DNA from: an uncultured Syntrophus sp.
Lineage (GTDB): Bacteria; Desulfobacterota; Syntrophia; Syntrophales; UBA5619
Direction: 5' to 3'
DNA length: 60,811 bases
Assembly (NCBI GenBank): GCA_964540555.1
Contig: CAZINF010000002.1
Span: 1-60,811 of the forward strand
Below are positions 2,434 through 15,509 of this stretch, piece after piece (position 1 is the first letter of the stretch; each line of letters starts with the position of its first letter). The notes below the pieces were generated by a model. The model saw nothing but the letters and a program-made list of their open reading frames with translations, made no database searches and was not told the DNA's origin. Position numbers and translations under genes: made by a program.

Positions 2434-4062
2434 ATGGGTATTCTTTACGAAACCGTCAGAGGCCCTCTGATGGAAGAGGAAAGCCGTTCCGAAAACACGC
2501 GGGTTGTCCGGGCGGCCGGAGCCGTGGGGATCGCCACAATGATCTCCCGCATCTTCGGCTTCATCCGGGATATGGTCGTGGCCGGCCTCTTTGGGGCAGG
2601 ACTGACAACCGACGCCTTCTTCGTCGCTTTCAGGATCCCGAACCTCCTCCGGCGTCTCCTCGCCGAAGGGTCGTTGACCGTCTCCTTCGTCCCCGTCTTC
2701 ACCGAATACCTGCGGAATAAAACCCGTGAGGAAGCCCTGGAACTGGCGAACATCACCTTCACGGCCCTGTCGATCATCCTTGTCTTTGTCTCGCTTATGG
2801 GGGTCGCCTTCTCCCCGTTCATCGTGACGATCATGGCGCCCGGTTTTGTCAAGACCCCCTCCCAGTATGACCTCGCCGTCTTCCTTACACGGTTCATGTT
2901 CCCTTACATTTTTCTCATCTCGCTTGTCGCCCTCTGTATGGGGATCCTCAATTCGCTCAGGCATTTCGCCGCCCCAGCCCTCTCGCCCGTCGTACTCAAC
3001 ATCGCGATGATCCTCGCCGCCCTGACGCTTAGAGACCTCTTTGAGGAGCCGATTGTCGCCCTGGCCGCGGGCGTCATGGCGGGAGGCGTTCTCCAGCTTG
3101 CCATGCAGTGGCCCTTCCTTGTCAAAATGGGGGTCCGGCTGAAGCCCGATTTCCGGTTCCGCCACCCCGGGGTGAAGCGGATCGGCCTGCTGATGCTTCC
3201 TGCCGCCTTCGGGGCGGCGATCTACCAGATCAACATCTTTGTCGGAACGATATTGGCGTCTCTGCTGTCCCCGGGGAGCGTCTCCTACCTTTACTACGCC
3301 GACCGGATCGTCGAACTTCCCCTCGGTGTCTTCGCCATCGCCGTGGGAACGGCGTCGCTTCCCAGTTTTTCAGAACAGGTCGCCCTCGGAAAGACCGAGG
3401 AACTCAAGCGGACGACAGCCTTCTCGCTCAGGCTGATTCTCTTTGTCACGATCCCGGCGACCGTCGCCATGATCATGCTCAGAAGCCCGATCATCTCGGT
3501 CCTTTTCCAGCGGGGCGAGTTCGACGTCCAGGCGACGACGCACACGGCACAAGCGCTTCTTTTTTACGCCGTCGGCCTCTGGGCCTTTTCCGTCATCCGG
3601 ATTGTCGTCGCCGTCTTCTATGCGCTGCAAGACACCCGCACCCCCATGAAGGCCGCCATCGTCGCCCTGATCGTCAACGCCGGCTTCAGCGTCGCCCTGA
3701 TGTTCCCTCTGAAACACGGAGGAATTGCTCTCGCCACGTCCATCGCCTCGGCCGTGAACGTCGGAATACTCTGGGTGATCCTGAATCGGCGCATCGGAAA
3801 CATCCTGGATGCGGAATTTTATCGTTCATTCGGCAAGACCGTATTTGCATCGCTGGTCATGGGGGGAATGATCCTCGTCGTCGAGACGATCACCCCCTGG
3901 CAACCCTCCGGGCCGTTCGATGCGAGGCTGATCTATCTTGTCCTGTGCGTCACCGGGGGAGCCGCGGTCTTCTTCACGACCGCCTTCCTCCTGAAGAGCC
4001 CGGAGATCGAAATCATGTTGAGGTCCGTCCGCCGGCGGATCGCACCCGTGAATCATCCTTGA
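2434..4062 (+). CDS. murJ: lipid II flippase MurJ (MviN)
   Basis: 542-aa polytopic ORF with the MurJ N-terminal signature SRIFGFIRDMVVAGLFGAG..TDAFFVAFRIPNLLRRL. An alternative start at 2470 is possible. Confidence 0.9.
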   Translation: MGILYETVRGPLMEEESRSENTRVVRAAGAVGIATMISRIFGFIRDMVVAGLFGAGLTTDAFFVAFRIPNLLRRLLAEGSLTVSFVPVFTEYLRNKTREEALELANITFTALSIILVFVSLMGVAFSPFIVTIMAPGFVKTPSQYDLAVFLTRFMFPYIFLISLVALCMGILNSLRHFAAPALSPVVLNIAMILAALTLRDLFEEPIVALAAGVMAGGVLQLAMQWPFLVKMGVRLKPDFRFRHPGVKRIGLLMLPAAFGAAIYQINIFVGTILASLLSPGSVSYLYYADRIVELPLGVFAIAVGTASLPSFSEQVALGKTEELKRTTAFSLRLILFVTIPATVAMIMLRSPIISVLFQRGEFDVQATTHTAQALLFYAVGLWAFSVIRIVVAVFYALQDTRTPMKAAIVALIVNAGFSVALMFPLKHGGIALATSIASAVNVGILWVILNRRIGNILDAEFYRSFGKTVFASLVMGGMILVVETITPWQPSGPFDARLIYLVLCVTGGAAVFFTTAFLLKSPEIEIMLRSVRRRIAPVNHP

Positions 4063-4105
4063 CCGGGAGCGCAACCCGTAAGCTCCGCCTTGTAAGTGGG
4101 GACAC

Positions 4106-4139
4106 GGGAAGCCCCGCCCTGTAGGCGGAGAGCTTCACA
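4106..4139 (-). repeat. REP-like GC-rich palindromic element, copy A (inverted orientation)
   Basis: gggaagccccgccctgtaggcggagagcttcaca is the reverse complement of the tgtgaagctccccgcccacagggcggggcttccc family. Lies in the murJ/SRAP intergenic region. Confidence 0.8.
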
Positions 4140-4152
4140 AAATGGAGGAACC

Positions 4153-4827
4153 ATGTGCGGCCGTTTTGTCCTGCTAACCGATTTGTCCGTTATTGTTGAG
4201 TCGTTCGGCATTGAGGAGATGGCCTGCCGGTATAGAACGGGCAATACCCTCTCACCCGGTCAGTATATTGCGGCCGTCATTCATGATGATAAAACACGGC
4301 TTGTCGACACCCGCTGGGGGCTTATCCCATCGTGGGCCAAGGACCCATCGATCGGATATAGAATGTTCAATGCCCGCGCCGAGACCATAGCCGAAAAACC
4401 AAGTTTCAAGAAGGCTTTTCAAAACCGCCGCTGCCTGATCCCCGCCGATGGATTTTACGAATGGCAAAAAATAGGAACGGTAAAAAAACCTTTTTATTTT
4501 TCCCTTAAGTCAGGGCAGCCGTTCGGCTTTGCCGGACTCTATGAAACCTGGATGTCACCGGAGAGAGAACCGATCAACACCTGTACGATCATAACGACCC
4601 AGCCCAATGAACTGGTTCGATCCATCCATGACAGAATGCCGGTCATCGTGCCGAAAGACAAGGAGAGACCATGGATCGATCCTCTCAATCGCAACCGGGA
4701 AATGCTGCTGTCCCTGTTAAAACCCTATCCGCCGGATGAGATGTCGATGTTCGAGGTGGATGCGAAAGCACTCTACGTGCCGAAAGCTGCCAACAGCATG
4801 TTGTTCGATTCGGGTCCCATAAGATGA
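4153..4827 (+). CDS. SOS-response-associated peptidase (SRAP/YedK family, abasic-site processing)
   Basis: Starts MCGRF (catalytic Cys2) behind a GGAGG RBS, with SRAP-like blocks through the ORF. Start trimmed from 4096. Confidence 0.85.
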   Translation: MCGRFVLLTDLSVIVESFGIEEMACRYRTGNTLSPGQYIAAVIHDDKTRLVDTRWGLIPSWAKDPSIGYRMFNARAETIAEKPSFKKAFQNRRCLIPADGFYEWQKIGTVKKPFYFSLKSGQPFGFAGLYETWMSPEREPINTCTIITTQPNELVRSIHDRMPVIVPKDKERPWIDPLNRNREMLLSLLKPYPPDEMSMFEVDAKALYVPKAANSMLFDSGPIR

Positions 4828-4841
4828 GGTTTAGACGAGTT

Positions 4842-4878
4842 TGTGAAGCTCCTCGCCCACGGGGCGGGGTTGCCTGGG
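4842..4878 (+). repeat. REP-like palindromic element, copy B
   Basis: tgtgaagctcctcgcccacggggcggggttgcctggg, located 15 nt after the SRAP stop. Confidence 0.8.
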
Positions 4879-4928
4879 TTTACCAAAGACTTTCAACATA
4901 TTGATAGTTTAAGAAAAAATGTCGAAAA

Positions 4929-5339
4929 TTAGAAACCGGTATGCTGCCCCTTCATCCACTTTGCGGCGTCTTCCGGCAGGACTTCCCCGTTCGAGGCTGC
5001 CCGGGCGTACGTTTTGGCTTGATTGATTTCTTTCTCCGTCACAATCCGTTCCAGGACCGCATCGAAAAGAGGATTGAATCGGTCGTTCATTAACCGGAAC
5101 AGACCTGATTTTTCTTTCAGTGCGATCTTGTAGAAACGGATGCACCCGTAACAGGCCGGTGTTCGCACGTCATATTCCGAATGGTTGACACGGTAGGTCC
5201 AGGAGAGGAATCGCATTCCCAGTTTTAGAGGCTCGCGAAACAGCCGGAACCACGGAGCGCGGCAGTAAGCGATGGCAACCAGCTTGAGCGTGCAGGTGTT
5301 GCATACCGCACTCTTCTTGACGTTGGGATCGGTTGTCAT
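4929..5339 (-). CDS. hypothetical Cys-containing protein
   Basis: 136-aa ORF with plausible coding composition, 17 nt from the TauE gene on the same strand. No family recognised. Confidence 0.45.
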   Translation of the reverse strand: MTTDPNVKKSAVCNTCTLKLVAIAYCRAPWFRLFREPLKLGMRFLSWTYRVNHSEYDVRTPACYGCIRFYKIALKEKSGLFRLMNDRFNPLFDAVLERIVTEKEINQAKTYARAASNGEVLPEDAAKWMKGQHTGF

Positions 5340-5355
5340 ATTCTGCCCCAGGGGA

Positions 5356-6138
5356 TTACAACAGTCCGATAGTCATACCTAATCCGATCGTCACCAGCAT
5401 AATCCCGACGATGATCTGAACCGTGTGAAGCGTGATTTTTTTGATCAGTCGCGTTCCAAGGAAGGTCCCTAAAAAAGCCGCCAGTGTCGCCGCCAGCACC
5501 AGCTCCCAGATGCCGCCCAAATCGGCAAACTGGGAAGTGTAAAAGCTTAAGCCGTACACCAGCATGCGGGCGACATCTACAATCACGGCCGACACGGTTC
5601 CGGTTCCGATAAACGCTTCTTTCCCCAATCCGGCCTTGATCAGAAATGCCGATCTCAACGCGCCCTGGTTTCCTGAGAGCCCGCCGAAGAAACCGGAGAG
5701 GAGACCGCCCAGCGGCAGGTATTTGCGGTCGAAGGCAAGCTTGCTGAAGCTCGGCAACAGTTCAAAGAGCGAGAATCCGACGATCAGAAGGCCGATCAGC
5801 AGTTTGATGACGGTGATGTCGTGCTCCTGGCCGCCAAAGCGATAGGAGTACAATGGTGATATACTGGCAAAAAAGCCCAGGAGCGTCGCGCCGATCAATG
5901 CGGCAATCGCACCGGGAATGGCGAAGCGCGCCACGACCCCCCAATCGGCATTCCTGCCCACGAGGAAGACCTTGAAGACGTTGTTTGCCAGGTGCACCGC
6001 GGCTGTTGCCGCAACAGCCGCGGGTAAAGGGAAGAACAGGGCAAAGGCCGGCATGAGCACGGTGCCCAGCCCGAAACCGGAGAACAGGGTCATGGCCGAG
6101 ACCAGCCCTGCTACCAAACACACAACAAGATAGTCCAT
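5356..6138 (-). CDS. TauE/SafE (TSUP) family sulfite/anion exporter
   Basis: 260-aa membrane protein with about 8 TM segments, Gly-rich helices and duplicated 4-TM architecture typical of DUF81/TauE. Confidence 0.85.
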   Translation of the reverse strand: MDYLVVCLVAGLVSAMTLFSGFGLGTVLMPAFALFFPLPAAVAATAAVHLANNVFKVFLVGRNADWGVVARFAIPGAIAALIGATLLGFFASISPLYSYRFGGQEHDITVIKLLIGLLIVGFSLFELLPSFSKLAFDRKYLPLGGLLSGFFGGLSGNQGALRSAFLIKAGLGKEAFIGTGTVSAVIVDVARMLVYGLSFYTSQFADLGGIWELVLAATLAAFLGTFLGTRLIKKITLHTVQIIVGIMLVTIGLGMTIGLL

Positions 6139-6395
6139 TTTTCACCTCACAATCGGATGAAGCTCAAGAAGAAGTTCCGTGATATAATATCGACATTCGT
6201 TATCGACTTGCGATAATGATAATTACAGCCAAGGGGTTTGTCAATAATTTATTTTGGATTTAAATCGATGAACCTCGTCGAAATTGGCTGCTTGTGGTAT
6301 CTGACCATAGGTGGCATTTCAGGTTTTCCCTTCACTTCGGGGGACTCAAAATCTCCGTCCGCAAGGGCATGTCGAAATAAAAGAGCCATAAAAAA

Positions 6396-6417
6396 GGGGA
6401 GCAAAAGCTCCCCTTTT
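6396..6417 (-). terminator. intrinsic terminator (bidirectional design) after the octahaem cytochrome gene
   Basis: GGGGAGC-aaaa-GCTCCCC stem-loop flanked by an A5 run and a T4 run, 28 nt past the stop at 6445. Confidence 0.6.
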
Positions 6418-6444
6418 GGTCTCAGGCAATGATCTTTTTATGGA

Positions 6445-7539
6445 TCATTTGCCCAACCGGTGGATACCTTTGGCATACTGGGCCGCCCAGGCTGCATTCC
6501 GGTCGGAATGGCAGTTCAGGCAGGCGAAGCCCAGCGTGATGTATCCTTTGAAATTCTTCTTGTCCGCAGTCAGCTGGGGCGCCGCCGGGTCAAGGTTAAT
6601 CTTGAAGAGGTGGGTGGCCAGATCGCCCTTCATAAAGCCGCGCTGGATCGCCGTCTCGCCCATGTCCGGCATGTGACAGCTTGTGCACTTCACGTTCGCC
6701 TTCTGGTGCTTGCTGTCTTTGTAACCGGCAACCTGCTTGGAATGGCAGGATTGGCAGGTGGCCTTCATCTCCAGCTTCGCCCGTTTGTGGGGATCGTGAC
6801 AGCCAACACAGGTCATACTTTTATGGGGACCCTGGAGAAGCTCCTGGTACTGCTCCCGATGATCCGCAAAACCCGACGGCTTGGCGGGAATGACGCTCAT
6901 GTCGTTCCCGCGACGGTGACAGGTGGCGCAGGCGGTAGCAGCCTTATCCACCTTGATGTTGGCCTTGCCGGGACTGGCTGCATGGGCGGATCCGGGACCG
7001 TGGCAGGCCTCGCACTGAATGCCGTTGAAGGCCCAGGTCCCGATCAGGCCGGGCTTGCCAAGCTGGTTGCCTTCCTTTTTGTATCCCGTCGTGTGGCAGG
7101 AACCGCAATCGTATGGCGCCTTCTGGCCGGGATTCCAATTTACAAACTCTTCCGTCTCGATGTTGAACTGGTTCTTTCCTTTGATCTTGCCGTCAGGGCT
7201 CTCTGTGATGATGAATCCCTGCTGATCAATATACCTCGCTTTCCATTTGAATCCGCCTATCACGTATAGGATATCGTCCCAGGATTTGACGTAGCCGGGT
7301 TTCGGAATGCCCGCTTCCCGGGCCTCCTTGGCCGTCCTCAACTTGGCCGGGTGACCGGTGGCGCGCCAGTTGTCAAACACGTCGGCATGGCAGGCGGCGC
7401 ATTTGTCCGCGCCGACAAAGGTCGCCTGCGCAGCCGCCGGAGTTGCCTGAATCATACCGGACAACCACAAACCTAGGAGCGCGACCGCAAAGAAAACCGT
7501 TTCACACCTCCTCCGCATCCTGAATCTTTTCTTAATCAT
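6445..7539 (-). CDS. secreted octahaem c-type cytochrome
   Basis: Signal peptide plus eight CxxCH motifs: CAACH, CGSCH, CEACH, CATCH, CVGCH, CQSCH, CTSCH, CLNCH. Confidence 0.85.
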   Translation of the reverse strand: MIKKRFRMRRRCETVFFAVALLGLWLSGMIQATPAAAQATFVGADKCAACHADVFDNWRATGHPAKLRTAKEAREAGIPKPGYVKSWDDILYVIGGFKWKARYIDQQGFIITESPDGKIKGKNQFNIETEEFVNWNPGQKAPYDCGSCHTTGYKKEGNQLGKPGLIGTWAFNGIQCEACHGPGSAHAASPGKANIKVDKAATACATCHRRGNDMSVIPAKPSGFADHREQYQELLQGPHKSMTCVGCHDPHKRAKLEMKATCQSCHSKQVAGYKDSKHQKANVKCTSCHMPDMGETAIQRGFMKGDLATHLFKINLDPAAPQLTADKKNFKGYITLGFACLNCHSDRNAAWAAQYAKGIHRLGK

Positions 7540-7861
7540 AAGTACTTCCCCCTTACAAATGAAATGAAATCGATAAATCTCAGAAAGCCGCGAAACCTTT
7601 ATCGGATAAGGATATCAAAGGCTCTCAATGCAACTCATTGGAACGGTAATGATACCTATGAGACCTTTCTCTCTTTTGGGGCCATGTATATTCATTATGG
7701 ACATGCGTTTTAGAAAATATAGGTTTCACAAATCCATTTATGCCTGAATAGGACAACTACACAATAGAAAACTTATTCACAGGTTTGCATTTCATGTGAA
7801 CAGTTCTTCACAGGCGGGATATCCGGAATGGCCGGACAGGAAACGGCAGTTCATGGCAACA

Positions 7862-7905
7862 TGTGAAGCTCCCCGCCCACAGGGCGGGGCTTCCCGGTAA
7901 GGAAG
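7862..7905 (+). repeat. REP-like palindromic element, copy C (fullest copy)
   Basis: tgtgaagctccccgcccacagggcggggcttcccggtaaggaag. The stem is ccccgccc/gggcgggg. Confidence 0.85.
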
Positions 7906-7932
7906 TGTTCCTTTTTTCGATGCGCCCCTCAA

Positions 7933-7959
7933 CCCCGCCCACAGGGCGGGGCTTGCGGG
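7933..7959 (+). repeat. REP-like palindromic element, copy D (core only)
   Basis: ccccgcccacagggcggggcttgcggg, in tandem 28 nt after copy C. Confidence 0.75.
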
Positions 7960-7979
7960 ATGCGCTCCCGGTCAAAAGA

Positions 7980-8639
7980 TTAGCCCTTGCGCAGGGGATG
8001 GTTACTTTCCAACATTTCGAGACAGTCGATAGTCTTTGTCCCTTCTTTGGCGAGGGAATAAGATTTGTCCGTGTCCTGTTCTATGATTCCGGCTTCTTTT
8101 AAAAGCTTTAAATGAAAAACCACTTTCGTGTGGTCATCGATCCCCAACTCGCGGGTAATTTCCATCAGACGCATATTTCCTCTGACGTGCAGCAGTTTGA
8201 TGATGTTTCTCCGGATGGGGTTGGCCAGAGAGCTCAGTGTACGATCGAAGTCCAGATTATTCACGCACGCCTCGAATTTCGCCTCCTCAAGCACGCGCCG
8301 TATGGTCGTCAGGAGAGTTTCGATCTTAAAGGGTTTGGAAATGTAATCGCTCGCCCCCCTTTTCATCGCATCAACCGCGTTCTCGACAGTGGCGAATGCG
8401 GTGATCATGATCACCTTTGCTTTTGGTCGCACTCTTCTCAGCGTAAGGAGCGAGTCGATGCCGTTGATTTTCGGCATCATGAAATCAAGGAGGATGATGT
8501 CAAATTCCCCGGCTTCACTCCCGGCAATCGCCTCTTTGGCCGACGCCGCGCTCTCGGTCTGATACCCCGCTCCCGTCAATACCTCGGTGAGATTCAACCT
8601 GAATTCTGCATCATCGTCCACAATCAGTATCTTTTTCAT
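7980..8639 (-). CDS. response regulator with REC domain and ArsR-type winged-helix output
   Basis: MKKILIVDDD..DIILLDFMMP..KPF receiver domain. The C-terminal half (LANPIRRNIIKLL...MRLMEITRELGI..VVFHLKLLKEAGII) looks like an ArsR/SmtB HTH. Confidence 0.85.
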   Translation of the reverse strand: MKKILIVDDDAEFRLNLTEVLTGAGYQTESAASAKEAIAGSEAGEFDIILLDFMMPKINGIDSLLTLRRVRPKAKVIMITAFATVENAVDAMKRGASDYISKPFKIETLLTTIRRVLEEAKFEACVNNLDFDRTLSSLANPIRRNIIKLLHVRGNMRLMEITRELGIDDHTKVVFHLKLLKEAGIIEQDTDKSYSLAKEGTKTIDCLEMLESNHPLRKG

Positions 8640-10101
8640 ATTGCTCCCTGGTTGGAATTTTTATGGTCGCAGTTGTACCCTTCCCGGCGACACTGGAAAG
8701 TTCTATATGACCACGATGCTGTTTGATGATGCCATAACAGATGGAGAGCCCCAGTCCGGTGCCCGATCCTATTTCCTTGGTCGTGAAAAAGGGATCGAAT
8801 AGCCGTGACAGGTTATCCCCGCTGATCCCCATACCCGTATCCGTTACACGGACTTCGATCAAGCCGTTTTTCTGTGACGAGGAGATGAAAATACTCCCTC
8901 CATCCGGCATGGCCTCCAGGGAATTTGACAAAATATTGATAAACACCTGTTCGAGCTTTCCGCTGTCACCCATAATCTCCGGCACCGGCGCCAGATTCTG
9001 TTGAACGTTGATATTTTTAAATATATATCCCAGCAGCGTAAGCGAACCGCTTATGATGCTGTTGATATTCAGAGGAACAAATACTGCTTCTCGCTGGCGG
9101 GAAAACTGGAGAAGTTCCTGAGCAATGGCTGACGCCCGGTCTATATTTCTTTCAACCGCGTCGAGTTTTTCAACGGCGTCGCGTTGTTCGCTGTTACTTT
9201 TCAATCTGGTTTTGAGTGTCTGGATGCCCAAAGAGGCATTCGTCAGCGGATTATTGATCTCGTGCGCTATGCCGGCTGCAAGCTGTCCGAGCGAGGAAAG
9301 CTTCTCCGTCTGGACGAGGAGCCTTGTCTGTTGTTCTATTTTCCGTCGGGTTTCGATGTCGAAAATATTCAGCGCTTTTATAATGAAGTATGAAAAAAGA
9401 ATGACCGCCACCCCCCGGAGCAACTCCACGGGCACGTGAATGATGGTCAAAAGCGTGCGAAGGTCCATAATCCCCGCCAACAATCCGTAAAAGAGAATTG
9501 CAACGCCCGAGAAAAGGAGGTTCCTCGAAACGGGTCCGCTCATTTTTTTAATTTCGTATGAGTACGTAATGAGTCCATAACCGGTTACCAGCCCTCCTGC
9601 GAGCCCGAGTGTGTATCGTACTCCGACCTCCGTTTGCCATAAGAACAGCAGATCGATGTGTGCCCCATGCTTCCATAAAACGATGGCCCACAGGAGGGCC
9701 AGCATAGAGGGAACCCCTTTGATCCACTTCATTTGCTTTTTATCGAGGGCGCTGATCAACGATAGGCCGAATTGCAGAAGGAAGAAAAAAGAGAGGATGA
9801 TCGTAGCGAGCAATATCAGCTTGATCAGGAAGATTTCCTGCCGCGTCATCTGTTCCCCCTGGATCAATGGGAGGAGTTGCAGCCATTCGTGGAAGCCGTG
9901 GATAAATCCGAACGCTCCCAGCATCCACAGGCTGCTGGAGAGTTTCAAGTCGCTCGCCTTCAAATCTTTTACCGAAATGGAAATGCCCAGAAAAAGGAAA
10001 GCGGCGCCGTAAAAAAAATAGATCGGATAAACAAGGGGGATGTTCGAGAACAGGTTATAAAGAGATAATAAAGTAGTCATACGCCTCGGCATTTCTAACA
10101 A
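8611..10101 (-). CDS. sensor histidine kinase with polytopic N-terminal membrane domain
   Basis: H-box AAGIAHEINNPL with N/G1/G2 boxes (NSLEAM, DTGMGI, GSGTGLGL). About 250 aa of multi-TM N-terminus. Overlaps the RR start by 29 nt. The start is uncertain (TTG 10101, ATG 10092 or ATG 10080). Confidence 0.85.
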   Translation of the reverse strand: MLEMPRRMTTLLSLYNLFSNIPLVYPIYFFYGAAFLFLGISISVKDLKASDLKLSSSLWMLGAFGFIHGFHEWLQLLPLIQGEQMTRQEIFLIKLILLATIILSFFFLLQFGLSLISALDKKQMKWIKGVPSMLALLWAIVLWKHGAHIDLLFLWQTEVGVRYTLGLAGGLVTGYGLITYSYEIKKMSGPVSRNLLFSGVAILFYGLLAGIMDLRTLLTIIHVPVELLRGVAVILFSYFIIKALNIFDIETRRKIEQQTRLLVQTEKLSSLGQLAAGIAHEINNPLTNASLGIQTLKTRLKSNSEQRDAVEKLDAVERNIDRASAIAQELLQFSRQREAVFVPLNINSIISGSLTLLGYIFKNINVQQNLAPVPEIMGDSGKLEQVFINILSNSLEAMPDGGSIFISSSQKNGLIEVRVTDTGMGISGDNLSRLFDPFFTTKEIGSGTGLGLSICYGIIKQHRGHIELSSVAGKGTTATIKIPTREQYEKDTDCGR

Positions 10102-10180
10102 TCAATCCCGGTTTTCGCAACACACGGGGGAGCAAACGGCCGGCGGATCATTGCTGCTCAGTGGATGAAGAAGATGAAGA

Positions 10181-10501
10181 TCACCGGTGACATCGGGAAC
10201 AATTCCTGGGGTCCTGCACGTCAAAGGATGCCTGCCCATTATGGCATCGACCGCAGAATTCTCCTTTGGTGATCTTCCCCATGTCCATCTTGTATGACCC
10301 CTGGGCCATCTGGAAAAACTGGTAATGACAGCCGCTGCACTTGAATCCACGTTCCTTCAAGTGTCTATTATGGCTGAAGATAACCGGCAGGGCATTGGGG
10401 AGCGCAAAGGTCAAATCGCCGCCTCCGGCCGGCTGAGCAGGAGCAACGAGAGGAATCGATAGAGAGCCTATGATTACGGCCGTAACGAACATCTTTTTCA
10501 T
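10181..10501 (-). CDS. periplasmic trihaem cytochrome (c7/c3-like)
   Basis: The MKKMFVTAVIIGSL signal peptide starts at ATG 10501. Three haem motifs: CSGCH, CGRCH, CSRCH. ORF trimmed from 10690. Confidence 0.75.
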   Translation of the reverse strand: MKKMFVTAVIIGSLSIPLVAPAQPAGGGDLTFALPNALPVIFSHNRHLKERGFKCSGCHYQFFQMAQGSYKMDMGKITKGEFCGRCHNGQASFDVQDPRNCSRCHR

Positions 10502-10514
10502 GTGGTTCCATTCC

Positions 10515-11498
10515 TTAGTTCCTCGATCCGGAGATGACGCCGTTTGTATCGTGTATGAATTGCTCTTGTGCCCATGCAACCCGTGACGCCGCAGATAAGA
10601 AAACAGCGGGCAGGGCTCTGTCCGTTTTATCGAGGCGTATGCGGAGCCCGCTCTGGTTTGCCATCTGGATGGCCAACCCGGGGCGCGCATTCAACTCGAG
10701 GAGCACCGGCCCTCTGTCCCGATCCAGTACAAAATCGGCGCCCAGATAACCAAGACCCGTCATTTCCATCGCCTCCGAGGCCGTCATCAACAGTTTGTCC
10801 CAATGGGGCAGGTGAATGCCGCTTACGGGATTTTCCGTGTCCGGATGTCTATTGACGATGCGGGACTTGTGGACAGCGTTCAGGGTGATGCCGCTGCCGA
10901 GGTCGATGCCCGCCCCTATCGCCCCCCTGTGGAGATTCGCCTTTCCGTCCGAGGCCTCCGTGGGAAGCCTCACCATCGCCATGACGGGAACGCCCTTGTA
11001 AACGATGATCCGCACGTCCGGCACGCCTTCCCGATAGGTGACGCTGCTAAAAACCGGATCCGGGTGGATGAGCGCCTCGATGATCGCCGTATCTTCCCCC
11101 CCTTCCAGAGAGAAGATCCCGGAAAGAATCGACGCGATATGATAGTTGAAATCCTCTCTTGACAAGATCTTGCCGCTCTGGGTCACAAAACCGTCGTCTG
11201 TCCTGCCCTTGATCAGAATGATGCCGCTGCCGCCGGAACCTCGAGCCGGCTTCACAACAAACTCACTCAGATGCTCCAGCACACCCGGGAGTCCGGCGAT
11301 GCTGCCGTGATTCTCCACCACATAATAGAGTTCGGGGATTGGGATGCCGAACTTCTCGGCGAGCCTTTTTGTCTGCACCTTGTCGTCTACGAGCGGGAAG
11401 GCGGAACGCGCATTGTAAGCCATGATATATCCGGCATTGCGAAAATTCATGCCGAGCACGCCACTTTCACGGAGTCTGCGGAAGCCGTCGAGAATCAT
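10515..11498 (-). CDS. RimK-related ATP-grasp alpha-L-glutamate-ligase-like protein
   Basis: The segment from MILDGFRRLRESGVLGMN has ATP-grasp blocks (FVVKPARGSGGSGI, DVRIIVYKG, LELNARPG). Its ATG overlaps the upstream stop (ATGA at 11495-11498). Confidence 0.85.
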   Translation of the reverse strand: MILDGFRRLRESGVLGMNFRNAGYIMAYNARSAFPLVDDKVQTKRLAEKFGIPIPELYYVVENHGSIAGLPGVLEHLSEFVVKPARGSGGSGIILIKGRTDDGFVTQSGKILSREDFNYHIASILSGIFSLEGGEDTAIIEALIHPDPVFSSVTYREGVPDVRIIVYKGVPVMAMVRLPTEASDGKANLHRGAIGAGIDLGSGITLNAVHKSRIVNRHPDTENPVSGIHLPHWDKLLMTASEAMEMTGLGYLGADFVLDRDRGPVLLELNARPGLAIQMANQSGLRIRLDKTDRALPAVFLSAASRVAWAQEQFIHDTNGVISGSRN

Positions 11499-13024
11499 GA
11501 CGACCCCTTTAGAAACCGGAAACGGTAAAGCTTGGAGAGTCGGTACCCCGTGTAACGCCCCAGGAGAATCTGCAGCGCGGCCACGGTCAGGACCAGCTCC
11601 GGATAGACAAAGAAGGTGAACTGCAGCGTCTCCCAGCTGATGATCCCGTGGGCGATGACCGAGACCGCGACGCTCCCGACGGCGGCGCGGAACGCTTCCC
11701 AAACCCCGGACTCCTCGATGAGGATGAAAAACCGTTCGATGGTCATGGTGAGAATGACAAAGGGAATCAACCCCACCGCCATCAGCTCCCGTAGGCCCAG
11801 TTTGTTTCCCACGAGGGCAAGCAGGGTAAAGCAGGCGATGACCAATGTCAGGATGACGGACAGACGGGGAACAAGCAGGAGATGAAGTTTGTCTAGAAAA
11901 GACCTTGCCGCGTAGCCGACCAAAAGAACGCCGCAAAAGATAGCGACACCGTAAACGGTGCCGGTACTCCGGAATGCCAGTGCGATCAGCAAAGGCATGA
12001 AGATCCCGAATGTCGGAAAACCCACGACATTGCGGAGTATGGAGATGATCAACGCCCCGATAGGCACCAGAAGAAGGATGCGAAACGTCCCCTGGAACTC
12101 CTGCGGCAGCTGCAGCAAAGACCAGCGATCGAGAAAATGGGCGGACCGTGTGATATGTTCATAGAAGAGGTTCCACTGGCTCACCACCTGCCGGGTTATC
12201 GTCCACCGGATGTCGGACAATTTCCCACCCGTCACCTTGACGACCGGCAAACCGCCTACCGCTAAAGGGAGAAGCGCCGCCGGCGACGGATAGACCTCCC
12301 ACGTCTCTGGATTCAGATGGCCCCAGGTCCCGCCCACCCAGACTTCGATCCATTTCGTCGGCAGGATCTGCACCCCCTCGGTAAGTCTGAGCCCCTCTAC
12401 GGACCTTGCCGGCAGGTTGGCTGCCCGAAAAAGGGTGAGAGCGGCGTCCGTTGGATCATGTTTCTGCTGAACAACCTGCCATCGCCGGAACACTTCATCG
12501 CTCGGCGGCGAATCGCCCCGTGCGCTTTTCAGCGCCGCGACAACCGTCTGAAATCGGATCATCGGCGCCAGGGCTTGCCACTTCAGGGCCGCCCCTTCCG
12601 CCAGTGACTGTTCCTCTCTGTTCATCGTCGGCGGGAAGGGACTCAACAACGGTGATTGGATTGCAGCGCTGCGGCGGGGGAGGGAGTGGATCGTGCCCCT
12701 GTATTGGATTTCCTCCGGCCTGTCTACGCCCGCCCCCGACCAGACGCCTAACCTGTTTGGACCCTGCGTTTGAATGTAAAATGCGTACATGCCGGAAAGG
12801 ACGCGCTCCTCGACAACCATGTTTCCGATCTGTTCGGAAGGGAGCGCCAGGAAGAGCGCGCTCTGCTCATCTTTGGGGGTGACATGCGCGTTGATGAGAA
12901 GCTGCCATGTCTGCCCCTCGGCCACCGGCAAAACCGGATATCCGAGCCATATGATGCGGTAGAGCACCAGAACACACGTCAAAAGGAAGAGCGCGGCGGC
13001 CGGCAAAAAACCAGGACGTCTCAT
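11495..13024 (-). CDS. inactive-transglutaminase-like domain fused to 7 TM helices
   Basis: N-terminal TM, an extracytoplasmic domain of about 300 aa, then seven hydrophobic helices in the C-terminal 200 aa. ATGA overlap with the upstream gene at 13021-13024. Confidence 0.75.
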   Translation of the reverse strand: MRRPGFLPAAALFLLTCVLVLYRIIWLGYPVLPVAEGQTWQLLINAHVTPKDEQSALFLALPSEQIGNMVVEERVLSGMYAFYIQTQGPNRLGVWSGAGVDRPEEIQYRGTIHSLPRRSAAIQSPLLSPFPPTMNREEQSLAEGAALKWQALAPMIRFQTVVAALKSARGDSPPSDEVFRRWQVVQQKHDPTDAALTLFRAANLPARSVEGLRLTEGVQILPTKWIEVWVGGTWGHLNPETWEVYPSPAALLPLAVGGLPVVKVTGGKLSDIRWTITRQVVSQWNLFYEHITRSAHFLDRWSLLQLPQEFQGTFRILLLVPIGALIISILRNVVGFPTFGIFMPLLIALAFRSTGTVYGVAIFCGVLLVGYAARSFLDKLHLLLVPRLSVILTLVIACFTLLALVGNKLGLRELMAVGLIPFVILTMTIERFFILIEESGVWEAFRAAVGSVAVSVIAHGIISWETLQFTFFVYPELVLTVAALQILLGRYTGYRLSKLYRFRFLKGSS

Positions 13025-13545
13025 TTCGGAGTGACCTCGGGGCAAGAAGGCTTTGTGCAGAATGATGTGTCGCATGCGACGACAAAACCATGCATAAGGG
13101 TATTTCTCCCAATAAGAAGAGGGTGTTTGACATTGGAACGGTTATTGAGATTCACCTCCGTCTGCATCCGCTTTGGCCCGATACACAGATCTACCACGAC
13201 GACCGGCCGTTTCTCTTTCGTCTCGGCACTCCTGACGGTCATCCATTTCACGATCGGCAAGCGAATATGTTGGCCCCCGTATTCTTCAGGCAGAGTGAAT
13301 TCGACAATATTTCCTTTTATTGTGAGATTTCTGGCATCGAGGGAAGAGATGGCCGCTCCGGTGTCTATTCGGGCAGGCAGCGTCACCCCCCAGGGGAGAA
13401 GCATCACATTCTCTATAGCGCCAAGCTGGATTTTCTCTTTCGTTTCCGCAAATGCAACCCCCGGATCGATGAACAATATCACCAAACACAGAGCTGTCTT
13501 GATAATCATTTCCTTGAGAGCGGGTATGCGGTCATTTGATGGCAT
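13021..13545 (-). CDS. retropepsin-like aspartic protease (putative 'ATP-dependent zinc protease' family)
   Basis: Signal-like IIKTALCLVILFIDPGVAFA followed by the RIDTGAAISSLDA (D-T-G-A) motif. Start chosen at ATG 13545 behind GGAGAG. Confidence 0.75.
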   Translation of the reverse strand: MPSNDRIPALKEMIIKTALCLVILFIDPGVAFAETKEKIQLGAIENVMLLPWGVTLPARIDTGAAISSLDARNLTIKGNIVEFTLPEEYGGQHIRLPIVKWMTVRSAETKEKRPVVVVDLCIGPKRMQTEVNLNNRSNVKHPLLIGRNTLMHGFVVACDTSFCTKPSCPEVTPK

Positions 13546-13635
13546 GACATCTCTCCGTGAAATATCCGTGTAAGGACTATAGCAGAGGATAATATCTTTT
13601 TCAACATCAACCGCAGGGCCGGTAACGAGACCTGC

Positions 13636-13666
13636 AAACTTCGCCCCGCGGGCGGGGAGCTTCAGA
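13636..13666 (-). repeat. REP-like palindromic element, copy E (inverted)
   Basis: aacttcgccccgcgggcggggagcttcagac, in the divergent intergenic region between the retropepsin and CoADR genes. Confidence 0.75.
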
Positions 13667-13865: not shown

Positions 13866-15509
13866 ATGATGAAGGTTTGCATCATCGGCGGGGTGGCCGG
13901 CGGCGCCACAGCGGCCGCCCGGTTGCGGCGGTTGGATGAAGCGTCGGAGATTGTCATGTTTGAGAGAGGCGATTACATCTCTTTTGCCAACTGCGGTCTC
14001 CCTTATCATATTTCCGGCCGAATCAAGGAGCGCAGCAGCCTGCTTCTGCAAACGCCGGAAGGTTTCTGGTCCCGTTTTCGGGTTGAGGTCCGATTGGGCA
14101 ATGAGGTCATGGCCATCGATACCCAACACAAGCGGCTGCGGGTCAGGAATCTGAAGAACGGAAAAGAATATGCCGAATCATACGACTACCTGATCCTGTC
14201 GCCGGGGGCCTATCCGTTTGTTCCACCAATCGAGGGAAGCAATGCGGCGATGTTCATGAGCTTCCGCGACATTCCCGACATGGATGCCATGATTGCCAAG
14301 GTCGAGAATCATCCTGTGAAAGAGGCAGTGGTTATAGGCGGGGGATTCATCGGTGTGGAGATTGCGGAGAACCTGATTGCCAGGGGAATTAAAACCCACC
14401 TTGTCGAGATGCTCGCTCAGGTCATGATGCCATTTGATCCGGAGATGGCCAATATCATCCAGACCGGGCTTGCCGGCGGAGGCGTTTGCCTCCATCTGTC
14501 CGACAGCGTCAAAAGGATCGTGGGCGATGCACAGGGCAAGGTCATTCTGGATTCCGGAACCGAACTCACTGCCGAACTGGTCGTCAGTGCCGTGGGTGTA
14601 CGGCCCGATATCAAATTAGCCCGAGAGGCCGGCCTGAAGATCGGCGCCACAGGCGGAATTGCTGTCGATACCAGCATGAAGACCAGTGATCCATTTATTT
14701 TTGCTGTTGGCGATGCCGTAGAGACGACCCACCTGGTGGCAGGGACGCCGGTGCTTGTCCCGCTGGCAGGTCCGACCAACAAACAGGCCCGCATCGCCGC
14801 AGACAACATATGCGGCCTTTCTTCCCGTTATCCGGGGTCGCTGGGTACGTCCATCGTCAAGGTCTTCGATTTGCAGGCGGCCGTTACGGGATTGAATGAA
14901 AAAACAGCCAAGAGCCACAACCTCGCTTATCAGGCCATTCACCTGCATCCCCTCAGCCATGCTGGATATTATCCCGGCGCCGCGCAGATGAGTTTGAAGC
15001 TGCTCTTCGAAGTGCCGGGAGGGAGGATTCTCGGCGCCCAATGCATCGGTACGGATGGCGTTGATAAGAGGATCGATGTGATTGCCACCGCCATCCGCGC
15101 CGGGATGACGGTTTATGGTCTGGAGCAGTTGGATCTTTCCTATGCACCGCCTTTCGGCTCCGCCAAGGACCCGGTCAATATGGCAGGTTTTGTAGGCAGC
15201 AATATATTGCGGGGCCTGGTGACGTCGGTCACATACGACCAGGCCAAAGCGATGGGAAATTCCGTCTTTCTGGATGTGCGAACAAATGAAGAATTCAAGG
15301 AAGGAAGTATCCCGCAGTCGATCCACATCCCCCTCGACGAGCTGCGCCAAAGAATCCACGACATCCCGAAGGATCGTCATTTGATCGTGACCTGCCGGAC
15401 CGGTATACGCTCCTATGCGGCTGTCCGGATCCTCAAACAGTCAGGTTTCGAGCGCCTGTCAAATCTTTCGGGGGGCTATACAACCTATTGCCATTATACG
15501 GCAAAATGA
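13866..15509 (+). CDS. CoA-disulfide reductase / NADH oxidase family flavoprotein with C-terminal rhodanese domain
   Basis: MMKVCIIGGVAGGATAA FAD motif, redox Cys in SFANCGLPY, and a rhodanese tail with active-site loop CRTGIRS. An AAGGAG RBS precedes ATG 13866. Confidence 0.85.
   Translation: MMKVCIIGGVAGGATAAARLRRLDEASEIVMFERGDYISFANCGLPYHISGRIKERSSLLLQTPEGFWSRFRVEVRLGNEVMAIDTQHKRLRVRNLKNGKEYAESYDYLILSPGAYPFVPPIEGSNAAMFMSFRDIPDMDAMIAKVENHPVKEAVVIGGGFIGVEIAENLIARGIKTHLVEMLAQVMMPFDPEMANIIQTGLAGGGVCLHLSDSVKRIVGDAQGKVILDSGTELTAELVVSAVGVRPDIKLAREAGLKIGATGGIAVDTSMKTSDPFIFAVGDAVETTHLVAGTPVLVPLAGPTNKQARIAADNICGLSSRYPGSLGTSIVKVFDLQAAVTGLNEKTAKSHNLAYQAIHLHPLSHAGYYPGAAQMSLKLLFEVPGGRILGAQCIGTDGVDKRIDVIATAIRAGMTVYGLEQLDLSYAPPFGSAKDPVNMAGFVGSNILRGLVTSVTYDQAKAMGNSVFLDVRTNEEFKEGSIPQSIHIPLDELRQRIHDIPKDRHLIVTCRTGIRSYAAVRILKQSGFERLSNLSGGYTTYCHYTAK

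Follow-up and report, generated by a model that had tools for sequence, protein, structure and literature searches.

On the minus strand of a 60.8-kb stretch of DNA from an uncultured Syntrophus sp. (contig CAZINF010000002.1 of assembly GCA_964540555.1, positions 1 to 60,811; the whole stretch is called the window below), three overlapping genes specify a retropepsin-like protease, a seven-transmembrane (7TM) protein and an ATP-grasp ligase, and a trihaem cytochrome gene begins directly behind them. Is this a redox-linked variant of an uncharacterised system, as the original prediction from the letters of the window had it, or have two independent elements come to lie side by side? With good confidence we regard the three overlapping genes as the copy of RloABC belonging to this Syntrophus lineage (Thermodesulfobacteriota), and the cytochrome as coming from a separate cassette.

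The rloABC-like triad

The three genes are located as follows.

13021..13545, minus strand: rloA-like gene (open reading frame (ORF) table; 174 amino acids (aa))
11495..13024, minus strand: rloB-like gene (ORF table; 509 aa)
10515..11498, minus strand: rloC-like gene (ORF table; 327 aa)

Direct reading of the sequence places ATGA start/stop overlaps at 13021-13024 (rloA/rloB) and 11495-11498 (rloB/rloC), and the TAA stop of rloC at 10515-10517; 13 nucleotides (nt) later, at 10501, the ATG of the cytochrome gene is found. The anatomy originally described, i.e. three minus-strand genes with ATGA overlaps, a 13-nt gap, a trihaem cytochrome and a kinase/regulator pair, is therefore correct. Related loci were collected by a survey of one genome per GTDB species using two peptide patterns, which yielded 80 loci (L001-L080), 78 of which keep rloC. 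The order rloA-rloB-rloC is constant throughout these loci, and the 4-nt start/stop overlap is kept in 64/74 related loci for rloA/rloB and in 61/76 for rloB/rloC; overlaps kept this widely are not due to chance, and translational coupling is a trait of the family.

We take the triad to be the system first defined in a 2009 survey by Iyer, Abhiman, Burroughs and Aravind (Mol Biosyst 5:1636; cited in PMC12096838), which reportedly described, as predictions only, an amidoligase neighbourhood of ATP-grasp enzyme, inactive transglutaminase-7TM protein and Zn_protease, and from which PF14397, PF14400, PF14402 and PF05618 presumably derive. The claim that such triads had been noted in comparative-genomic surveys alone is out of date, since the rlo operon was published in 2025 and NCBIfam holds models of RloA and RloB. 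In Pseudomonas aeruginosa PA14 the operon consists of rloA, rloB (PA14_41710) and rloC (PA14_41730) (Lormand et al., mBio 2025, PMC12239564), and both its genetics and cleavage in vitro have been studied. Tolerance of hypo-osmotic conditions and of beta-lactams, biofilm formation and a normal cell shape all depend on three redundant secreted RloA proteins, and the defects of a triple rloA deletion are suppressed by deletion of rloB or rloC (PMC12239564). Crystal structures of P. aeruginosa RloA have been solved, and in vitro the enzyme cleaves glutamate runs of at least 8 Glu (PMC12239564). In a Shewanella transposon screen, an RloB homolog was recovered as a hyper-vesiculation locus (PMC12096838). 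The other half of the claim, that no native product had been demonstrated, stands: the native substrate of RloA was not identified in the P. aeruginosa work (PMC12239564), and a literature search for later work found no paper identifying the native product of RloB/RloC.

The triad thus matches the RloA, RloB and RloC families already described from P. aeruginosa, and the label of an uncharacterised system has to be dropped. The likeness extends to gene order, to a retropepsin-like protease with DTG and basic residues matching K46, R114 and R137, to a membrane protein combining an inactive transglutaminase domain with a 7TM part, and to a cytoplasmic ATP-grasp ligase. The window differs in that its host is an anaerobic Syntrophus-like bacterium and not a gammaproteobacterium, and in that a promoterless cytochrome/kinase cassette is joined to the 3' end of rloC. 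Profile searches bore out the family assignments made by eye (Zn_protease, 7TM_transglut, Transglut_i_TM, TIGR02291 and Cytochrome_C7), and the triad passes all family-level tests of RloABC bar the narrow NCBIfam cut-offs by which RloA and RloB are named. The window proteins are, to judge from these scores, distant members of the family and not close orthologs of the Pseudomonas ones.

The protease matches Zn_protease (PF05618; E-value=4.8e-21, 75.6 bits against a cut-off of 27) and the NCBIfam model "retropepsin-like aspartic peptidase RloA3" (E-value=3.4e-25, 88.6 bits, under the equivalog cut-off of 210). Its residues 61-64 form the DTGA motif, through which the PDB matches (2pma, 9g58 and 9g59) are all aligned. 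By alignment to 9g58, R59, D61, R113 and R136 correspond to K46, D48, R114 and R137 of Pseudomonas RloA, in which D48 is catalytic and mutation of these residues impaired the cleavage of polyglutamate (PMC12239564). Across a set of 90 RloA sequences, from the window and the 80 related loci, R59 is kept in 89/90 and D61, R113 and R136 each in 90/90, and a basic channel so constant speaks for an anionic substrate in this clade as well. The N-terminus, which was judged by eye only, displays basic residues, a hydrophobic stretch (IIKTALCLVILFI) and then AFA followed by E.

In approximately 20 of the loci L001-L080, including Thermodesulfobacteriota and Tectomicrobia, two tandem rloA paralogs lie 5' of rloB (for example L007, L011, L015, L016, L018, L019, L040, L043 and L059), an arrangement reminiscent of P. 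aeruginosa with its three redundant RloA genes. The window has one rloA, no second copy being found elsewhere in its 60.8 kb.

RloB contains 7TM_transglut (PF14402; E-value=3e-73, 246.8 bits against a cut-off of 25) and Transglut_i_TM (PF14400; E-value=1.4e-11, 45.1 bits against 25) domains. It aligns over its full length (residues 12-504 with positions 15-504 of the 508 of the model) to the NCBIfam family "osmotic stress tolerance membrane protein RloB" (E-value=4e-67), its 227 bits lying under the exception cut-off of 900. The transmembrane topology was taken by eye and from an AlphaFold2 model, which displays an N-terminal helix (residues 6-26), a beta-rich and helical domain (39-279) and a C-terminal bundle of helices (308-504). 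The mean confidence (predicted local distance difference test, pLDDT) of this model is 73.8, with about 80-90 in the outer domain and a moderate 58-79 or so in the 7TM part. Using Foldseek, the outer domain was found to resemble the transglutaminase-like structure 3isr (E-value=6e-10), and the 7TM part gave no significant match to any solved structure. Residues 18-363 of RloB include no Cys, and in sets of 15 and 67 homologs none of the Cys, His or Asp positions of the periplasmic domain is invariant, from which it follows that the transglutaminase triad is absent; the periplasmic transglutaminase-like domain is predicted to be catalytically dead. An exact-protein look-up found neither RloB nor RloC of the window on record, and among the window proteins returned only the cytochrome.

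RloC scores 412.4 bits with TIGR02291 ("alpha-L-glutamate ligase-like"; cut-off 314.2) over residues 7-316, matches Pfam ATPgrasp_ST (E-value=1.5e-83), and possesses NLHRG and D..E.N ATP-grasp motifs which align with those of RimK (7qys). These features characterize the protein as a predicted cytoplasmic ATP-grasp enzyme, alpha-L-glutamate-ligase-like in type. In a PDB sequence search the matches to Ddl and RimK were marginal (E-value of about 2e-3), so that this search offered no direct structural relative of RloC.

On the explanation which we favour, RloC would build, in the cytoplasm, an acidic amide-linked product, most probably a peptide or tail of poly-alpha-glutamate; RloB, in the inner membrane, would carry or present this product at the periplasmic face; and trimming would fall to RloA, a retropepsin-like protease with a basic channel, secreted and dimeric on this reading. 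The chemistry of RloC and the native product are what we infer, as is the transport or presentation role of RloB, given that its 7TM part has no Foldseek relative and is modelled with moderate confidence. The coupled, membrane-associated system for glutamate ligation and processing which had been envisaged is in accord with the current working model for RloABC.

Two other systems invite comparison. RimK/RimB(/RimA), which polyglutamylates ribosomal protein S6, likewise pairs an ATP-grasp alpha-L-glutamate ligase with a polyglutamate-cutting retropepsin-like protease, and RimK/RimB has been proposed as the evolutionary source of rlo (PMC12239564); the Rim proteins differ in being cytoplasmic, without a signal peptide and without an RloB-type membrane protein. 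PgsBCA/CapBCA with CapD/PgdS is no more than a working analogy: there too an amide ligase, ATP-dependent and associated with the membrane, is combined with a glutamate polymer outside the cytoplasm and a dedicated extracytoplasmic cutter, but the fold is unrelated (PgsB is Mur-ligase-like) and the linkage gamma rather than alpha, and homology is not claimed.

The c7 cytochrome and the kinase cassette

Behind rloC the following genes are encountered.

10181..10501, minus strand: c7-type trihaem cytochrome gene (106 aa), which opens the inserted cassette
8611..10101 by longest ORF, minus strand: sensor histidine kinase gene (HisKA and HATPase_c, Pfam)
7980..8639, minus strand: response regulator gene (REC and ArsR-type HTH_20), overlapping the 3' end of the kinase gene
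6445..7539, minus strand: multihaem c-type cytochrome gene (364 aa; matches to Pfam Cytochrome_C7, C554 and c3_2)

The trihaem cytochrome possesses a hydrophobic N-terminus and three haem-binding motifs (CSGCH, CGRCH and CSRCH), which lie within approximately 70-80 mature residues as in the c7 class. It passes the Pfam and NCBIfam c7 models (Cytochrome_C7, PF14522, E-value=2e-17, 63.2 bits against 24.8; TIGR04257, "nanowire_3heme", 74.9 bits against a cut-off of 40) and in these respects resembles the c7-type trihaem cytochromes of the PpcA family; it differs from them in that its gene heads a cassette of histidine kinase and response regulator. The gap between cytochrome and kinase genes had been given as 79 nt. 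Since homologs of the kinase are about 489 aa long, its translation probably starts at 10080 (MTTLL...) rather than at the TTG at 10101, which corrects the gap to about 100 nt.

Loci related to this cassette were gathered from annotated neighbourhoods and from a metagenome scan using the N-terminal domain of the kinase. Among 14 distinct loci with a kinase identity of at least 62% and at least 450 nt of upstream sequence, 12 carry a c7 ortholog (50-87% identity) on the same strand, 50-100 nt 5' of the orthologous kinase gene, and none (0/14) carries Rlo genes. Nor was rloC found upstream of c7 in the eight c7-positive loci with at least 1.2 kb of upstream sequence. These counts (12/14 and 0/14) argue that the cytochrome belongs with the kinase and not with the triad. 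Around more distant kinase homologs the c7 gene occurs in 0/38 cases; the kinase itself is a member of a well-populated family in which full-length homologs are present. The regulator lies 3' of the kinase in nearly all related loci and is then usually followed by a multihaem cytochrome, as in L086, L087 and L089. TauE genes are often close to related cassettes, and PadR is also present in L086 and L089.

The unit of c7 cytochrome, kinase, regulator and usual multihaem cytochrome (7980-10501; loci L087-L110) is apparently a conserved and undescribed cassette, a literature search for a described c7-cytochrome/kinase module having returned nothing relevant. We regard it as a candidate periplasmic redox-sensing module. 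No credible Pfam match was obtained with the N-terminal 255 aa of the kinase or with a 136-aa ORF at the distal end of the inserted DNA (see below). The multi-TM N-terminal domain of the kinase, of about 250 aa, contains a near-invariant F-G-x-x-H-G-x-x-E-W motif. With the closest cassettes the window shares 84-90% identity in kinase and regulator. Its multihaem cytochrome (6445-7539) is 23-30% identical to the counterparts in most cassettes and 45-47% identical to those in L126, L127, L159 and L162; this position of the cassette appears to have been exchanged.

From the side of the triad the same separation is seen. The original prediction would have treated the absence of cytochrome and kinase from every orthologous neighbourhood as a sign of chance adjacency, and the survey goes that way: none of the 78 loci which keep rloC has an ORF with at least two CXXCH motifs within 5 kb 3' of that gene, blastp with the window cytochrome gave no match anywhere in the surveyed Rlo loci, and three closer metagenome contigs (RloB identity 87-92%) have neither cytochrome nor kinase 3' of rloC. 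What lies there in the nearest relatives is an ABC-F gene (RloB identity 92% and 88%), BioY with VapB/PIN (87%) or directly the convergent SRAP gene (86%). Clustering of the flanking ORFs in the 80 loci revealed no conserved fourth partner; no family occurred in more than 20, the top one being a generic ABC ATPase, and the triad is on this evidence a self-contained module.

The junction at the 3' end of rloC

The remaining features of the locus, the boundaries of the inserted DNA included, are listed here.

10517..10525, minus strand: left junction, rlo backbone/cassette, within the final codons and the stop of rloC
4878..4932, no strand: right junction of the inserted block (blastn mosaic; synteny of SRAP, MurJ, hydrolase and P5CR from 4877)
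5356-6138, minus strand: TauE/SafE-family permease gene (TauE E-value=1.8e-20), distal end of the inserted block
4929-5339, minus strand: 136-aa ORF, distal end of the inserted block
4096-4827 by longest ORF, plus strand: SRAP (YedK-like) gene
13576..13604, minus strand: candidate sigma-70 rlo promoter (consensus scan; TTGAAA, 17 nt, TATAGT, with TG)
13866..15509, plus strand: CoA-disulfide-reductase-like flavoprotein gene with C-terminal rhodanese domain (Pfam), divergent from rloA
rloC-cytochrome junction sequence: GGATCGAGGAACTAAGGAATGGAACCACATG

Using blastn, four relatives (L001, L002, L081 and L084) could be aligned from 15533 to 10556 and a fifth (L082) to 10525, i.e. through the flavoprotein gene, rloA, rloB and rloC. 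The backbone alignment returns from 4877 downwards (SRAP, MurJ, hydrolase, P5CR), with the gene order of L082 and L084. A block of 5.6 kb (4878-10517) therefore fills the slot between rloC and the SRAP gene, comprising the c7 cytochrome, kinase, regulator, multihaem cytochrome, TauE and 136-aa ORF genes. In the cassette loci L087, L093, L094 and L102 the match to the window begins in every case at 10517 and runs to about 7971, with 86-90% nt identity. The TauE and 136-aa ORF genes find their match in L086 (6156 to 4933, 77% nt) and in L089, where they form two blocks (6156 to 5374, 77% nt; 5309 to 4928, 80% nt) near the same kinase. In the close relatives this slot is a hot spot of gene-content change: L081 and L084 have an ABC-F ATPase there and L082 has BioY with VapB/PIN, whereas L001 is empty at this place and the window has the 5.6-kb block.

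At the left junction RloC ends in ...SRN* in the window and in ...SRSSAALQQ* in L082, the TAA stop coming from the TAAGGAAT ribosome-binding region of the cassette; the conserved part of RloC, as delimited by TIGR02291 over residues 7-316, is intact. The native cassette loci L087, L093, L094 and L102 carry TTGACA-17-TATAAT about 45 nt 5' of the c7 ATG and, 3' of this promoter, an inverted repeat, GTTAACT-N6-AGTTAAt. Both are missing in the window, the coding sequence of rloC standing in their place, and an operator search of the whole window, the DNA 5' of rloA included, gave no match to GTTAACT-N6-AGTTAA. Of the candidate rlo promoter, both hexamers are kept in three close relatives (L081, L082 and L084). 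A consensus scan of the minus strand from position 11322, in rloC, to the cytochrome revealed no promoter-like site, and no terminator-like site was found by scanning between rloC and the cytochrome gene. With the promoter of the cassette lost and neither kind of site in between, the cytochrome is probably read through from the rlo promoter in this genome.

We propose that the 5.6-kb block was inserted into a variable slot in such a manner that the promoter of the cassette was removed and its ribosome-binding site joined to the rloC stop. The juxtaposition of cytochrome and rlo genes would then be a recent accident of genome rearrangement, and the cytochrome not a fourth Rlo component. As far as the compared sequences go, the cassette is joined to the 3' end of rloC in this genome only, and the attached cytochrome is a lineage-specific juxtaposition; the significance of the gene fusion is uncertain.

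Several points weigh against this explanation or against the identity of the triad. Owing to the 13-nt spacing and the lost cassette promoter, the cytochrome is probably co-transcribed with rloABC here, so that a newly acquired functional link is conceivable. The window proteins score far below the cut-offs of the NCBIfam RloA and RloB models, which were trained on Pseudomonas, and to equate their functions would be to extrapolate. The designation of ATPgrasp_ST in Pfam, "sugar-transfer associated", cautions that the glutamate chemistry of RloC is a prediction. The survey covered mostly a Desulfobacterota/Nitrospirota-type clade and hardly sampled gammaproteobacterial loci. Lastly, in eight loci of one subclade a monohaem class-I cytochrome c of 113 aa (CNSCH, signal peptide) adjoins the triad on the opposite strand, 3' of rloC in L007, L015, L016, L018, L019, L062 and L075 and 5' in L040; it belongs to a family other than c7, stands outside the operon and probably reflects inherited synteny.

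The alternative which survives best, though it is unlikely, is that of regulatory capture, in which the fusion is adaptive and either makes the rlo promoter drive the redox-sensing two-component system or subjects rlo to regulation by this system, in both cases tying remodelling of the envelope to redox state in the lineage. It has precedents in VxrAB, which controls rloABC in V. cholerae, and in rloA2, which adjoins creBC in P. aeruginosa (PMC12239564), and two assemblies contain the promoterless fusion. However, the fusion is confined to this sequence, the inverted repeat of the cassette is not to be found in the window, the region upstream of rloA included, and the slot 3' of rloC is prone to unrelated insertions in general. 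Slightly less likely again is the broader notion that the fusion is not neutral, the Rlo operon and the redox sensor forming one transcription unit and being co-regulated, or the cytochrome acting on or with the periplasmic face of RloB/RloA. If true, envelope remodelling of the poly-Glu type and redox sensing would be co-regulated in this Syntrophus lineage.

We consider it improbable that the c7 cytochrome acts in the periplasm together with protease, 7TM protein and ligase, as the fourth component of a redox-linked Rlo variant. The 13-nt gap without a terminator-like site, the likely expression with rloABC of a cytochrome lacking its native promoter, and the shared, predicted periplasmic location of RloA, the outer domain of RloB and the cytochrome are what one would expect of such a variant. 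Yet the arrangement is absent from 78/78 orthologous loci and from the three closer contigs, cytochrome orthologs are elsewhere tied to the kinase cassette without Rlo genes, and none of the three Rlo proteins has an evident redox cofactor site. Moreover, ABC-F packs as tightly after rloC in relatives, overlapping it by 28 nt in L081 and starting 5 nt after it in L084; with such spacing in sister genomes, tight spacing alone is poor evidence of function.

That the rloC-cytochrome junction is an assembly chimera of two genomic regions is very improbable. The relatives of the window are all metagenome-assembled and the junction is sharp, as a chimera would have it, but the DNA to either side of the 5.6-kb block belongs to one syntenic backbone, with rloC at the left junction and SRAP, MurJ, hydrolase and P5CR at the right one, and relatives carry other insertions in the same slot. 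In addition, an independently produced Logan contig (L172, run SRR13723394) is 100% identical to positions 7946-10775 of the window, 2830 nt across the junction, although an origin from the same sample is possible for it. Finally, we give next to no credence to the triad being a cytoplasmic, RimK/RimB-type system for glutamylation of ribosomal protein S6 rather than an Rlo envelope system, as its weak matches to RimK (TIGR00768, 51.7 bits against 143.4) and RimB (28.9 against 200) both fall under the cut-offs, the N-terminus of the protease is signal-peptide-like by eye, and an RloB-type membrane gene stands between those of protease and ligase.

Distribution of Rlo loci and minor features

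The preferred reading, an RloABC copy with a foreign cassette behind it, bears on the distribution of the system. In 2025, Rlo was described as chiefly gammaproteobacterial, with 96% of RloB matches in the Proteobacteria (PMC12239564). The surveyed loci are mostly from Syntrophus, Syntrophaceae, Syntrophorhabdaceae and other metagenome-assembled genomes (MAGs) of the Thermodesulfobacteria phylum, with Nitrospirota, Tectomicrobia, Binatia, Nitrospinota and a few others. A search with RloB gave 1415 homologs at E-value of 1e-10 or lower among the candidates scored, the closest being 92% identical; the few with a source name are from Thermodesulfobacteriota, Deltaproteobacteria, Syntrophales or Pseudomonadota MAGs, and the nearest named genome is that of Syntrophus sp. 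GWC2_56_31 (RloB identity 86%). The system is thus present in MAGs of Syntrophales, Syntrophorhabdaceae, Nitrospirota, Tectomicrobia, Binatia and Nitrospinota, in loci which keep intact catalytic features and translational coupling. So broad a distribution suggests that its product is a general feature of diderm envelopes and not a speciality of Pseudomonas.

The divergent flavoprotein gene is syntenic in the five closest relatives (L001, L002, L081, L082 and L084; 79-88% nt identity) and not in more distant loci. For the SRAP gene, the Met-Cys of MCGRF (about 4153), and not the GTG of the longest ORF, is the probable start. A GC-rich palindromic element resembling repetitive extragenic palindromes, TGTGAAGCTCCCCGCCCACAGGGCGGGGCTTCCCGG, occurs between genes in both orientations at 4059-4141, 4842-4877, 7862-7897, 7933-7959 and 13630-13664; it is also present in contigs L081, L082 and L084, and one of the window copies abuts the right end of the inserted block.

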